This document shows positions 23,742-37,301 of a DNA stretch of 64,000 nt, in pieces; the first letter of the stretch is position 1; every line of letters begins with the position of its first letter. The stretch lies in contig JACJWA010000003.1 of the NCBI GenBank assembly GCA_020637395.1, forward strand, positions 10,380-74,379. The letters run 5' to 3'. The DNA is from Calditrichota bacterium (GTDB lineage Bacteria > Electryoneota > RPQS01). The notes beneath the pieces are model-generated. The model was not told the origin of the DNA, ran no database searches, and worked only from the letters and a program-made list of their open reading frames with translations. The translations under genes and the position numbers were made by a program.

Positions 23742-23845
23742 TGTCCCAAATCTGTCTTCATCCTCTTGTATCACTATATAAAACAAACTCCGCCAATTCA
23801 CTCTTAATCAATTGGTTCGGGGTTCGAGTCCCTGTGGGTGCACCA
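23742..23845 (+). repeat. direct repeat copy 1: ~55-nt non-tRNA arm + 3' half of tRNA-Lys(CUU) ending ACCA (no 5' half)
   Basis: aCTCTTAAtcaat-tggtt-CGGGGTTCGAGTCCCTG-TGGGTGC-A-CCA gives anticodon loop, variable loop, T arm and acceptor 3' strand, closely like the E. coli tRNA-Lys 3' half. No D arm or matching GCACCCA 5' strand upstream. 89/102 nt identical to copy 2 (hand alignment). Confidence 0.75.
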
Positions 23846-23850
23846 ACTAA

Positions 23851-23887
23851 AGCCCTGCTAAAACATTGTTTTGCAGGGCTTTTTTTG
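23851..23887 (+). terminator. rho-independent terminator
   Basis: AGCCCTGC-loop-GCAGGGCT followed by TTTTTTTG, directly after the tRNA-like fragment and the ytfE operon. Confidence 0.8.
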
Positions 23888-24012
23888 TTTTTCGGACTTG
23901 CGCAAGTGTTCAATCGTAAGTCCAGATTTTAGCAGCCAGTGTCAACTAAGACTGTTTTCCGTCAGCGCATTTGGCACAAAAGGGTCGGGAGTATTACGGT
24001 GTGATTTAGGGG

Positions 24013-24645
24013 TGTAAGTTCAGTCGGGTGACCCGACTGAACTTAGTGGTGGCGACCCGATTTGGGGTTGCGGAGCTTCCCGGAAGGTGCGATCATGTGT
24101 GCATCGGAAAGGAAGATTTTTATGCCCAGAGGAATAGCGAAGAAGACGGTCGAGAAACCCGAGAGCGCGGCGCAGCTGATCAAGACGGTGAAGCAGCGGA
24201 CGCGCAAGATGTACAGTGCGAAAGACAAGATCCGCGTGGTGCTGGCCGGACTGCGCGGGGAGCAAACGGTGGCGGCGCTGTGCCGTCCGGAGAACCTGCA
24301 TCCACCACATCACCTCAGCGCGCAACCATCCGCAGACGAAGGGAAAGCTTGTCCTGAACGCAGTGAAGGATCAAACGTCTCAACCGTACGGCGAATGAAC
24401 GTCAGAATCTCGTGGTCTATACGATGCCGTCGGAGCTGCAAGAGGCACTGAACCGGTTCCGCGACTGGTACAACGCCGAACACGACCACAATTCGATCAA
24501 CATTTTGCACACCGCCATCGTCTACTTCGGTCGCGCCGAAGCCATCCAACGCCGCCGTAAACGGCTCCAAACCCAAACAAAAAAGACCCGTCGCCAGGTC
24601 AATACAACATCACAACCAAACTCTCAGAAGCTCCGCAACTTACAC
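24013..24645 (+). mobile_element. decayed IS element (IS3/IS481-like rve transposase remnant, internally deleted and frameshifted)
   Basis: Pieces in three frames: OrfA-like KMYSAKDKIRVVLAGLRGEQTVAALCR; HPQTKGK; C-terminal ..LNRFRDWYNAEHDHNSI..VYFGRAEAIQRRR. Short terminal inverted repeat GG(G/C)GTGTAAGTT at ~24011 and ~24633 (reverse). Confidence 0.65.
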
Positions 24646-24791
24646 GCCAAACCTGCACCTTAAAACAATAGCGCATCCTCTGCCATTTGGGCTGAAGGCT
24701 TACAATCGGAGTCCCAGAATCGAAAGAGACAAAAATGGCGAGAGTTAGACTCTGACCACAAGATCGAGTGATCGACAATTGCCTGCAATTT

Positions 24792-25505
24792 TCAGGATGT
24801 TGAAGTTATACCCGCGTTCGACTTATTTTGCGAGATTGCCAAGTGTTGTGCGGACTTTCCGTTAACCAGCCAACTCAACCAATTCTCCAATCCAATGCCG
24901 ACCTTTGCGGAAATCTCGATTACTTCCAAATCTCCGTTCACAAGATCAAGGTTTCTTCTCAGTGTGGCAATGTCCGTGTCCAGAAACGGCAGCAGGTCAG
25001 TCTTGCTCACGAGACAGAGCTGGCATTCACGAAACATCAGGGGGTACTTCATGGGTTTGTCTTCGCCTTCCGGAAGAGACAAAACAACCACCTTCTTATG
25101 TTCGCCAAGGTAGAATTCAGCGGGACAAACCAGGTTGCCGATATTCTCGATGAAAATGAAGTCTAACTCGGCCAATGGCAGCATTTGCAGCGCCGCATGC
25201 ACAAGATGAGAACCAACGTGACAGTCGCCGCCAAAAGGCGCTGTGTTTGCTTGCACGACGGAGATCTCTAAGGGCGAGAATCGTTCACTGTCAATGGTTG
25301 ATGTGATGTCTCCTTCAATGACAGCGCAGCGATAGCCCTTTTGCTTGAGCTCCGCTATTGTTCGGACTAATAGTGTTGTCTTGCCGGCCCCGGGTGAAGA
25401 CATGATATTAACGACAAACAGATTATGGACATCGAAAGTTGCTCGGTTTTTCTTCGCAAGCGCATCGCTTTCTTCCAGCACGTTACTTACAACAGGTATT
25501 TTCAT
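24792..25505 (-). CDS. hypB: hydrogenase nickel incorporation GTPase HypB
   Basis: ORF 24792..25598 with ATG 25505 (ATGA overlap with hypA). P-loop SPGAGKTTLL, ENIGNLVCP. Confidence 0.9.
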   Translation of the reverse strand: MKIPVVSNVLEESDALAKKNRATFDVHNLFVVNIMSSPGAGKTTLLVRTIAELKQKGYRCAVIEGDITSTIDSERFSPLEISVVQANTAPFGGDCHVGSHLVHAALQMLPLAELDFIFIENIGNLVCPAEFYLGEHKKVVVLSLPEGEDKPMKYPLMFRECQLCLVSKTDLLPFLDTDIATLRRNLDLVNGDLEVIEISAKVGIGLENWLSWLVNGKSAQHLAISQNKSNAGITSTS

Positions 25506-25864
25506 TCTGCGGTTTCTTTCTCTTGAATTGTGATTTCTGTCAATGTCACACCACGACCTCTTACAACCCTTACGCTGGTAGACAAACAGTGTGGACACAT
25601 AAATAACGGCTCGGCGAGTTCAAAACTCTTTGCACATTCATTGCATATGCAGAATATAGCTTCAGTCTCAATCACCAACCGCGAATTCGCAAAGCCAGAC
25701 TCTGACTTGATGGCGTCATACATGAACACAAGTGTATCTGTTACGACCGCATCAAGTTCGCCGATTCGGACCTTCACTTCGCTCACATTGATGGAGTGAA
25801 CGCGTTGCGGCAACGCCGCGCGTGCTTGTTTGACAATGCATTCCGCCAGATAAAGTTCATGCAT
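25502..25864 (-). CDS. hypA: hydrogenase maturation nickel metallochaperone HypA
   Basis: MHELYLAECIV start (ATG 25864); zinc site CNEC...CPHC. Confidence 0.9.
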   Translation of the reverse strand: MHELYLAECIVKQARAALPQRVHSINVSEVKVRIGELDAVVTDTLVFMYDAIKSESGFANSRLVIETEAIFCICNECAKSFELAEPLFMCPHCLSTSVRVVRGRGVTLTEITIQEKETAE

Positions 25865-25868
25865 CGTG

Positions 25869-35953: not shown

Positions 35954-36452
35954 GGATCACCTCCTCGAGTTTATCCAGTAACTCTTCAGCGGACAACCGG
36001 CCGAGTTCTTCTCCGTCCACACTGGCAATGGGAGCAAGTCCGCATGTGCCAATGCAGCAAGCGGATTGCAAAGTCAAGCTTCCGTCTGCGGAGACTTCGT
36101 CCAATGCCATGCCGTAGCGTTCTTTGAGCGCTTCAACCAGCTTGGGTACTCCTTTTATGTAGCAGGCCGTCCCCGTGCAGACGACGCAGTTGTGTGTGCC
36201 GGGCTTCTTTAGCGTGAAATACTGGTAAAAGGTCGCGACTCCATAGACTTTGCTTAGCGGCACACCCAGCGCGTCGGAAACATAGGTCAAGGAATCCCGG
36301 TCCAGATAGCCAAAGGCGTGCTGCACTGCGTGTAACGTTTCGATTAGCGCGTGGGGACTCTGTCCGTGCTTGCGCATCACCAATTGAACCCCTTTCCACT
36401 TCTCATCGGAATTAGGCGGATCGGGTAGATTTGATAGTCTCTGCATACTCAA
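35940..36452 (-). CDS. hoxE: hydrogenase diaphorase 2Fe-2S subunit HoxE (NuoE-like)
   Basis: CVVCTGTACYIKG ... CCIGTCGLAP cluster motif. TTG 36452 or ATG 36446 start. Confidence 0.9.
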   Translation of the reverse strand: MSMQRLSNLPDPPNSDEKWKGVQLVMRKHGQSPHALIETLHAVQHAFGYLDRDSLTYVSDALGVPLSKVYGVATFYQYFTLKKPGTHNCVVCTGTACYIKGVPKLVEALKERYGMALDEVSADGSLTLQSACCIGTCGLAPIASVDGEELGRLSAEELLDKLEEVIHGDA

Positions 36453-36475
36453 GATTTGTCTTTCATTAAGGAAAC

Positions 36476-36516
36476 TGAACAGTGTTCACTGATATGCCCT
36501 GATTGAACAGCGTTCA
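36476..36516 (-). promoter_or_regulatory. two 13-bp palindromic boxes TGAACA-N-TGTTCA (candidate operator pair) in the hoxE leader
   Basis: TGAACAGTGTTCA (36476-36488, perfect) and TGAACAGCGTTCA (36504-36516, one mismatch), 28 bp apart, 24-64 bp upstream of the hoxE start. Confidence 0.4.
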
Positions 36517-36567
36517 TTTTTTTCAACATTTTGTTACTACTTATTTTAAGTATAACGTCCTAAATAT

Positions 36568-36583
36568 TGTGAAAATTTTCACA
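36568..36583 (-). promoter_or_regulatory. perfect CRP-type palindrome TGTGA-N6-TCACA upstream of hoxE
   Basis: TGTGAAAATTTTCACA, a 16-bp perfect palindrome. On the hox sense strand, TATACT/TAAAAT -10-like hexamers lie about 22-33 nt downstream of the dyad centre. Confidence 0.45.
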
Positions 36584-36870
36584 TTTATCAACCCGTCTTA
36601 GTCAATGTGTGACTTTATTACTTCGATGCTAATCTTGAGGAATCATGATTTTAGTTAGCAGGCTTTTCGCGCAGAGGAATTGTAGGGCAGGTTCTCTTGA
36701 GAATACTGCATATAAAAGGGGTTAGATTTCGCGCCCAGCGATTAACTACGATGCGTTTGTGGGCCAGCACTTCTCATCACAAAGCTCGTGTGCCGCAACC
36801 GGAAGCAATCGGGATGGGTGTTTTAGCGCGGAAGACTGTACCAGTTTGAAAGTTAGCATATAATGGTAGG

Positions 36871-37152
36871 TTGGGGCAGCAGGAGGCTGGGATGGCAAGA
36901 GCTAAGGACAGGCCGGAGCAGATCATACGGATGCTAAGGGAGTTGGAAGTCGAGAACAGCCGGTTGAAGCGCGTGGTCGCGGATTTGACGTTGGACAAGC
37001 AGATTCTTGCGGACGCGTTAGCGGGGAAATTCTTAAGCCGAGCGGATCGCCGCAGAACGTTCCTGGCGGTCGCCGTTCGCGGGACGAAGACAGAGTATCG
37101 GAGCGGCGGGTGTGTCAGGTGGTGGGACGTTGTTTTGGACAATTGGTCTTGA
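36871..37152 (+). pseudogene. IS3-family OrfA remnant (HTH part deleted; leucine-zipper part and start of OrfB-like region retained)
   Basis: RPEQIIRMLRELEVENSRLKRVVADLTLDKQILADALAGKF matches the IS3-family OrfA C-terminus. No DDE domain follows. Confidence 0.6.
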
Positions 37153-37199
37153 AATCGAAAATTGACGATGTTCATGTTCGGTTGCGGCCACCGTGATGT

Positions 37200-37301
37200 T
37201 GTCCCAAATCTGTCGTCATCGCCTTGTAACATCATATAAAACGAACACTTCCCATTTACTCTTAATCAATTAGTTCGGGGTTCGAGTCCCTGTGGGTGCA
37301 C
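37200..37301 (+). repeat. direct repeat copy 2: non-tRNA arm + 3' half of tRNA-Lys(CUU) (ends ...TGGGTGCA-cac, no CCA, no 5' half)
   Basis: Ungapped hand alignment to 23742-23843: 89/102 identical; the last 44 nt (anticodon loop to discriminator) differ at one base. Confidence 0.75.

Follow-up and report, generated by a model that had tools for sequence, protein, structure and literature searches.

A [NiFe] hydrogenase gene cluster between displaced tRNA-Lys fragments, probably in a decayed island of a tandem array

A complete hydrogenase module between two direct repeats

We examined a 64,000-nucleotide stretch of contig JACJWA010000003.1 from a Calditrichota bacterium (assembly GCA_020637395.1; hereafter, the window), in which a set of [NiFe] hydrogenase structural and maturation genes, hox-hyp, lies between two direct repeats that end in part of a tRNA-Lys gene. 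The analysis described below suggests that the window probably represents the distal part of an array in which genomic islands are stacked in tandem at a single tRNA-Lys(CUU) gene, and that hox-hyp resides in an older, decayed island of this array that no longer has an integrase.

Thirteen genes were identified between the repeats from Pfam and NCBIfam matches, called on the identical Logan contig L025 (coordinates are collected in Table 1). They provide every component of a Group 3d module, namely hoxE, F, U, Y and H, a maturation protease, and hypA through hypF, and are joined by a conserved open reading frame (ORF) of 212 amino acids. Clusters for Group 3d, NAD-linked bidirectional [NiFe] hydrogenases hold a full structural and maturation set in one compact block, as does the window. 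An initial annotation of this locus, made from the letters and their ORFs alone, had placed everything between the repeats on the minus strand; all 13 genes are indeed so oriented, but the insertion sequence (IS) remnants found at either inner border are on the plus strand.

Anatomy of the repeats

In a gap-free alignment of the two repeats (23742-23843 and 37200-37301), 89 of 102 positions are identical (blastn E about 1e-30), with a single mismatch in the final 44 nt (23800-23843 against 37258-37301; G/A at 23814/37272). Realignment thus reproduced the figures first given for them. The identities divide into 42 of 52 in a 5' part unrelated to tRNA and 47 of 50 in the tRNA-like part, and the 22-mer GGTTCGAGTCCCTGTGGGTGCA has exactly two copies in the window, where shuffled sequences lead one to expect none. 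Each repeat consists of the 52-nt non-tRNA arm followed by the 3' part of a tRNA-Lys(CUU), from about tRNA position 27 to 73, and after the anticodon loop both read through a T arm (CGGGG-TTCGAGT-CCCTG), an acceptor strand (TGGGTGC) and the discriminator A. The initial identification of a tRNA-Lys(CUU) 3' half also held, for the same 50 nt recur as the 3' part of intact tRNA-Lys(CTT) genes called by ARAGORN in related contigs.

ARAGORN called no tRNA at either copy, its only call in the window being a tRNA-Phe at 51391-51465. The Rfam tRNA model scored 13.7 bits at the repeats against a gathering score of 29, with no other family nearby. We therefore regard both copies as tRNA fragments. A tRNA 5' half is absent at the left repeat (23742-23800), and readings of the repeats as permuted or split tRNAs or as transfer-messenger RNA (tmRNA) were considered and rejected.

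Several features of the repeats resemble those of an attachment (att) site. The left arm carries two direct arm-type repeats at 23741-23762, CTGTCCCAAAT and CTGTCTTCATC. An imperfect inverted repeat, CCAATT(C/T)A / TCAATTGG, surrounds the 7-nt CTCTTAA in units composed of an arm and a tRNA core; this loop is identical between the two cores of the window, and both of its arms are intact. A CTGTCCC(C)AA motif with 10-11 nt spacing occurs in both of these arms, which we term P arms, and in the opposite, P' arm beside a P0126-type integrase gene. Moreover, arm-core junctions resemble intact tRNA-Lys genes only from the anticodon stem and loop onward (window 23794-23801). These features would fit an att site of lambda type with its crossover at the anticodon loop, and the repeats themselves are leftover attachment sites of genomic islands whose tyrosine integrases target tRNA-Lys(CUU).

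Related loci share the attachment sites and a conserved downstream block

Related loci, designated here L001, L007 and so on, were sought by scanning for the tRNA part in representative genomes, which yielded a single contig, L001, and by a metagenome scan and look-ups of integrase homologs, which supplied the remainder. An exact 20-mer from the P arm had no match in genome, metagenome or viral collections because the relatives differ from it by one or two bases; the core pattern did retrieve them, and the viral collection contained no match to the core.

Three loci (L033, L035 and L039) represent the canonical site, in which FtsE-FtsX are followed by an intact tRNA-Lys(CTT), a conserved block termed X, a pair of direct repeats, a convergent tyrosine integrase, an HTH_17 Xis-like gene, and variable genes. 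L001 and L016 show this layout as far as the integrase, which in L016 is truncated by an IS; the L001 contig stops 2.4 kb past the integrase. In the window, X directly follows the left repeat. Its identity is 82-94% with what comes after tRNA-Lys in L001, L016, L033, L035-L038 and L024, and with what comes after the junction of L032 described below; for L001, the figure is 93% over window positions 23844-23952, and the terminator is the same. A tyrosine integrase comes after X in L001, L016, L032, L033, L035 and L039, whereas none is present in the window, which bears out the earlier proposal that the element has lost its integrase. The window's X ends at about 23957, within the first P' arm repeat, leaving the integrase-side repeats disrupted.

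The pair of direct repeats after X differs by integrase subtype, being CTGTCCCCAA, AAAACGTC(G/A)C or TCTGGCGCGTTT (L001, L016, L032, L033, L035), and L032, L033 and L016 each have two copies of the CTGTCCCCAA motif in the interval from X to the integrase. Arm sites therefore look as if they may co-vary with the subtype of the integrase. The arm with a tRNA 3' part that lacks its 5' half was found again in L011, L019 and L020 and, in more distant form, in L012, L017, L018 and L022, adjoining different genes in each of these seven loci. Homologous arms precede the tRNA fragment in L032, L020, L011 and L019 irrespective of the neighboring cargo, and the P arm is conserved beside genes as unrelated as scdA, an IS remnant or a Fic gene. 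The right repeat of the window is 91% identical overall to L020. Among the loci examined, no single element was captured with both of its ends.

These loci also bear on whether the repeats concern integration at all. They could instead be a small gene or dispersed repeat, made up of a promoter, a small RNA resembling half a tRNA and a terminator; hairpins resembling terminators do follow both copies, the 5' part is conserved and A/T-rich, and similar arm-core units occur in several metagenome contigs. On the other side, the repeats show no promoter-like site and match no Rfam family, only two copies exist in 64 kb, and the conserved 5' motif corresponds to the repeats beside the integrase gene. 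Every related locus, furthermore, has the unit at an island boundary or has an intact tRNA beside an integrase in its place. Metatranscriptome contigs gave no signal over the repeats, a weak test in which the RNA runs matched only a related scdA transcript. Taken together, we consider a small gene or dispersed repeat extremely improbable.

The junction with the nar genes in related genomes

The decisive comparison was with L032, a 1.9-Mb contig of assembly GCA_020637445.1, whose integrase has an identical protein labeled by NCBI as belonging to a Calditrichaeota metagenome-assembled genome. L032, L031 and L034 all carry the window's nar operon through to scdA, followed by a homologous arm, a tRNA fragment lacking its 5' half, X, direct repeats, an intact integrase and an Xis-like gene, beyond which are defense-type genes (GmrSD, an OLD-like ATPase and an SNF2 helicase). 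Collinearity with these three loci spans window positions 14046-23949, with a nucleotide identity of 84.5%, and similarity does not extend past 23949. What follows the conserved nar junction is an intact integrase/defense element in L032, but IS debris and hox-hyp in the window.

The L032 element is in turn 99.46% identical over 4.8 kb to that of L033, with the identity ending in the 5' strand of the anticodon stem. Its left neighbor is FtsX and an intact tRNA-Lys in L033, but nar, scdA and a P arm in L032. Because the same element has two different left neighbors, the nar block appears to be a tandem insertion; as far as sequence comparison can show, it is an insertion relative to another genome. 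The junction running from nar and scdA through arm and core to X, together with the L032/L033 comparison, therefore indicates that the nar block, which also contains molybdenum cofactor (Moco) genes, is an island of the same family. The left repeat of the window is best read as the distal end of this nar island, to which the next element's proximal end (X) is joined.

These results change the picture given in the initial annotation, where the nar operon was treated as flanking DNA outside the island; it is itself the end of another island. The simplest model of the locus would be a single element in an intact tRNA-Lys, with the repeats as attL and attR and the nar operon as native flank. Such a model accounts for direct repeats that bracket the block and end in a tRNA 3' part. 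Neither copy corresponds to an intact tRNA, however, the left one having an element-type P arm and no tRNA 5' half; the junction from nar and scdA to P arm and core is kept in L032 ahead of a different, intact element; and the nar block is as atypical as hox-hyp in its G+C content at third codon positions (GC3). We regard a single insertion of this kind as very improbable. What stands of the original proposal of a tRNA-Lys-targeting integrative element is the presence of att remnants and the cargo position of hox-hyp, but not a simple attL/attR pair around one insertion.

A tandem-array model for the window

In the tandem-array model that we favor, integrases of lambda type would insert islands into one tRNA-Lys(CUU) gene by crossover at the anticodon loop. 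Each integration would rebuild the tRNA from element sequence, and the old tRNA 3' part, now behind the distal P arm of the element, would end up at the island's far end. Were another integration to hit the rebuilt tRNA, the new island would come to lie ahead of the first. Read from left to right, the window would contain the end of the nar/Moco island, the P arm and tRNA fragment of that island (23740-23843), X of the older island (23844-23956), a wrecked backbone composed of a short inverted relic and an IS remnant, hox-hyp as all that is left of the content, another IS remnant, the P arm and tRNA fragment belonging to the older island itself (37198-37301), which would be its attR, and finally DNA of different composition. 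The intact tRNA-Lys would be expected to lie upstream of the window.

Placement of the hox-hyp block at the cargo position of a tRNA-Lys(CUU)-targeting element is supported by X and a backbone relic on its left and by the conserved arm and tRNA fragment on its right. The relic (23964-24048) aligns with L035 4762-4849 (78%), L032 6847-6937 and L033 412-502, and these counterparts of the 85-nt piece are intergenic, inside integrase elements and several kilobases from the integrase. This piece, which recurs across elements, has a strong hairpin; a terminator, an operator or a transfer-related site are possibilities for it. The hox-hyp unit keeps two outer ends but no longer possesses recombination genes or inner arm sites, so that self-excision should no longer be possible. 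Because the integrase, Xis and P' arm sites have been lost, we infer that the island is now fixed, and the absence of an integrase leads us to view the unit as a decayed, non-functional former island member. It would appear that hox-hyp travelled as cargo of the decayed element, although whether as original or later-placed cargo is unproven.

Base composition was compared between blocks of the window. The 20 genes to the left of the left repeat have a mean GC3 of 0.543, the 12 hox-hyp genes tested one of 0.565 and the 14 genes to the right of the right repeat one of 0.673; hox-hyp differs from the right flank (p=0.0003) and not from the nar block (p=0.17). Gene by gene, all values left of 37300 fall between 0.46 and 0.62, and those to the right between 0.62 and 0.76 in 13 of 14 cases, the exception being a 137-aa ORF (41295-41708, 0.49). 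A step in GC3 is thus found at the right repeat and not at the left one, as the tandem-array model predicts, and lends it moderate support.

A number of observations weigh against the tandem-array model. The tetranucleotide usage of hox-hyp is intermediate between those of the nar block and the right flank, and both compositional contrasts are between blocks within the window. The 64-kb window contains no intact tRNA-Lys, so that the head of the array is inferred, and tblastn and tblastx detected no integrase, Xis or remnant of either anywhere in it. No intact element that combines an integrase with hox-hyp was found in the relatives examined. Related contigs supplied intact tRNA-Lys genes; neither an empty site nor a shared right flank was found for the hox-hyp island. 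We attribute the lack of an empty site to the hybrid PAS kinase of the right flank, which is without an ortholog: apart from itself, no homolog above 40% identity was detected among 5.8 billion proteins. Assembled contigs from four runs of the source samples show no excision joint, circle junction or join of 23.8 to 37.3 kb, which is weak evidence since contigs drop rare variants. L024 (8880-9182) has X and repeat-like motifs after an intact tRNA-Lys but no integrase, and the next gene encodes a 1294-aa secreted protein; this site is either a native one that already contained X or an old, eroded attL, and because of it X alone is no proof of element origin. Lastly, with an IS remnant at each inner border, later rearrangement is conceivable.

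IS remnants and the possible later placement of hox-hyp

Both remnants suspected of being IS debris at the inner borders proved to be real, but part of the left one as first delimited, 23964-24048, is the backbone relic. The left remnant retains the N-terminal helix-turn-helix part of OrfA and the C-terminal end of a DDE transposase, and forms a separate contig in the source-sample assembly. Weak tblastx matches that had suggested an Xis-like relic at 24465-24557 were rejected as spurious, the ORF being the transposase C-terminus. The right remnant lies 45 nt from the right arm and shares 76% identity with the end of the IS by which the L016 integrase is truncated. Specifically, at L016 10456-10923 the integrase next to tRNA-Lys has been cut down to its C-terminal 131 amino acids by an IS3-type element, and the end of this IS resembles window 36831-36911. 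The resemblance indicates that the same type of IS erodes these islands in different genomes. Left and right remnants derive from different IS3-type elements with no DNA similarity to each other, and a composite transposon around hox-hyp was rejected on these grounds.

These remnants raise the question of whether the att sites are genuine but hox-hyp was never cargo of the element, IS-mediated events, whether an insertion, an inversion, a deletion or a composite transposition, having exchanged the interior of an L032-like defense element for a hox-hyp block that came from a different part of the genome or a different replicon. IS3-type remnants do sit at both inner borders, and the backbone relic beside X is inverted, so a rearrangement did occur. 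The same IS type truncates the L016 integrase, and the intact family members seen carry defense or unidentified genes and no metabolic operons. L030 also has, about 10 kb from its own hox-hyp genes, a 515-aa aldehyde dehydrogenase gene whose assembled part shows 84% DNA identity to that of the window. Yet the dissimilarity of the IS remnants leaves no composite-transposon signature, the L030 hox-hyp genes are only 65-71% identical where alignable and lie on the other side of the aldehyde dehydrogenase gene, the nar island illustrates that this family can carry large respiratory operons, and hox-hyp differs in GC3 from the right flank. We therefore judge a later placement of hox-hyp to be unlikely.

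Other Group 3d clusters were inspected for comparison. The closest HypB relatives are 70-77% identical, L027 and L030 among them; hox-hyp gene order is the same as that of the window in L027, and in L030 except that the 212-aa ORF is missing. In both loci unrelated chromosomal genes directly follow hypB, and the 10 kb on that side contain neither an IS nor an integrase nor a piece of tRNA. A further 80 HoxH loci from representative genomes across many phyla, the best of them 67% and most about 60% identical, had other neighboring genes and contained no arm, core, X or right-flank sequences. Among these 80 loci, L027, L030 and the window, only the block of the window is bracketed by tRNA-Lys att remnants.

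A still broader proposal is that one tRNA-Lys(CUU) gene serves as a docking line at which one integrase family adds and swaps respiratory modules, the hox-hyp unit being movable even now by a P0126-type integrase, either in trans or together with a neighbor. In comparison with cis-mobilizable elements, the unit lacks an integrase of its own, and its 7-nt loops are identical and its P arms intact, but its P' repeats are broken at about 23957. We regard this proposal as tentative and rather doubtful. If true, a nitrate reductase together with the pathway for its cofactor, and a bidirectional hydrogenase together with its maturation genes, would be among the modules docked in this Calditrichaeota-like lineage.

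Relationship to known systems

Lambda-type heterobivalent integrases act at att sites with core-type inverted repeats around a 7-bp overlap and arm-type direct repeats. The family described here would resemble these in its inverted repeat around the 7-nt CTCTTAA, its pairs of direct repeats in the distal and integrase-proximal arms, and the Xis-like HTH_17 gene beside the integrase. Relative to the lambda-type sites, however, the binding sites and overlap position in the window are putative, having been assigned from sequence pattern and conservation.

The Islander catalog of tRNA and tmRNA islands (PMC4383910) marks island ends by a displaced tRNA fragment, and includes 125 tandem arrays and, under a class of "anticodon-centred attP", 2083 islands with anticodon-centered sites. 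Shared features are a 3' tRNA fragment displaced to the island end in direct orientation, a regenerated tRNA beside a tyrosine integrase (in the relatives of the window), a block of identity that begins at the anticodon loop, and several islands at one tRNA. Unlike Islander members, the hox-hyp unit has no integrase, for which reason Islander's own filter would reject it, and the array head is outside the window. The present case is also set apart by its host, a little-studied bacterium of the Fibrobacteres-Chlorobi-Bacteroidetes (FCB) group labeled Calditrichaeota, and by its respiratory cargo.

A second precedent is found in Dehalococcoides (PMC3146451), where tandem ssrA-specific islands carry reductive dehalogenase operons and each ends in a direct repeat of the 3' end of ssrA; some of these islands are without an integration module and are thought to be fixed or to be mobilized only with their neighbors, by accretion. 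Tandem placement at one small-RNA gene, a conserved extra sequence just upstream of the repeat, and respiratory cargo are common to both systems. In Dehalococcoides, however, a serine recombinase, a 20-bp repeat of the tmRNA gene and crossover in the T loop are involved, whereas the family in the window has a tyrosine integrase, a 50-nt piece of tRNA-Lys and a boundary at the anticodon loop. No new mechanism is called for, as tandem islands linked to tRNA or tmRNA genes, decayed members without integrases, and respiratory cargo have all been documented. What is particular to the array of the window is its host group, an integrase family with the long conserved block X, and its cargo.

In the tandem-array model, both anaerobic energy modules of the window, one for nitrate respiration with Moco synthesis and the other for an NAD-linked hydrogenase with its maturation, would sit in an accreted array at a tRNA gene, in a wastewater bacterium of a poorly studied group. 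Such an array would help to explain the patchy distribution of these traits among related activated-sludge genomes. The arm, core and block X provide defined sequence markers for finding further members.

Feature coordinates and neighboring genes

Table 1. Features of the window, with positions counted from its first nucleotide. Assignments of arms and cores are putative.
Feature	Position	Strand	Evidence or remarks
Upstream nar/Moco island, cargo	4544-23650	both	Pfam and NCBIfam hits
nar/Moco island, minus-strand genes		-	TauE-like, moeA, moaC-moaB, mobA
nar/Moco island, start of plus-strand genes		+	Rrf2 regulator, moaA, MOSC, cytochrome c, narG, narH, narJ, narI::Rieske fusion
nar/Moco island, end of plus-strand genes		+	cytochrome b, 191-aa ORF, two NarK-type major facilitator superfamily transporters, scdA/ytfE-like
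Left P-type arm, right end of nar island	23740-23793	+	A/T-rich block and two direct arm-type repeats
Left core, displaced tRNA-Lys(CUU) 3' part	23794-23843	+	matches intact tRNA-Lys(CTT) of L001, L016, L033
Left core, anticodon loop CTCTTAA	23801-23807	+
Left core, T arm	23818-23834	+
Left core, acceptor 3' strand	23835-23841	+
Left core, discriminator	23842	+
Block X	23844-23956	+	intrinsic-terminator hairpin 23849-23882 and about 70 nt; P' side of next element
Integrative-element backbone relic	23964-24048	+	hairpin 24015-24045; inverted relative to X when compared with intact elements
Internally deleted IS3-type remnant	24062-24663	+	ORF translations; weak Pfam rve_3, E=0.0013
Hydrogenase maturation genes (block)	24792-31174	-	Pfam and NCBIfam hits
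hypB	24792-25505	-
hypA	25502-25864	-
hypE	25869-26882	-
hypD	26872-27873	-
hypC	27967-28182	-
hypF	28187-30532	-
Conserved 212-aa ORF	30536-31174	-
Bidirectional [NiFe] hydrogenase genes (block)	31186-36452	-	Pfam hits
Maturation protease (HoxW-like), 150 aa	31186-31638	-	TIGR00072
hoxH	31631-33061	-	PF27537 HoxH
hoxY	33068-33547	-
hoxU	33588-34325	-
hoxF	34322-35953	-
hoxE	35940-36452	-
Different IS3-type remnant, left end and internally deleted orfA	36831-37152	+	NCBIfam transpos_IS3, E=0.0016; translation
Right P-type arm, right end of hox-hyp island	37198-37251	+	same two arm-type repeats, 37199-37220
Right core, displaced tRNA-Lys(CUU) 3' part	37252-37301	+	anticodon loop 37259-37265, discriminator 37300
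Right flank	37302-41229	-	minus-strand genes; terminator hairpin Y 37305-37341, differs from that of X
Response regulator	37383-37796	-
Hybrid PAS histidine kinase, 1151 aa	37774-41229	-

The left boundary of the nar/Moco island was not found within the window and may lie outside it; the island covers no less than 10 kb, and its size probably exceeds 20 kb. Within it (16786-19229), a fusion protein of 448 amino acids combines the nitrate reductase gamma subunit with a Rieske domain that has a twin-arginine translocation (TAT) signal, and a cytochrome b gene follows, an arrangement also present in L032. The fusion and the cytochrome b suggest a Nar unit wired to a bc-type module.

Beyond the right flank are an aldehyde dehydrogenase gene and several genes for type IX secretion substrates. 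The assembled part of the L030 aldehyde dehydrogenase gene (20049-20696) is the portion that could be compared with window 41962-43509, and the levels of similarity are discordant between this gene and the neighboring hox-hyp genes of L030.

The six bases that begin directly after the tRNA discriminator vary amid conserved surroundings. Across the two window copies (23843-23848 and 37301-37306), L032 and L033 they take the forms CCAACT, CAAGCT, CTGGTT and CACGAA, and they differ even between the 99.5% identical elements of the latter two loci.

The metagenome-assembled genome of L001 and L007 (CAZHAK010000020.1) is titled "uncultured Alphaproteobacteria". It encodes a type IX secretion sorting domain, however, and shares tRNA-Lys, X and the integrase with contigs whose integrase is labeled Calditrichaeota by NCBI; the title is probably wrong.

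In the source sample (runs X1 and X2), a related strain is present across window 21000-24200 at a depth of about 70-80, compared with about 24 for the source strain. This more abundant strain shares the nar and Moco genes at about 95-97% identity, and it breaks the assembly left of 24.6 kb.

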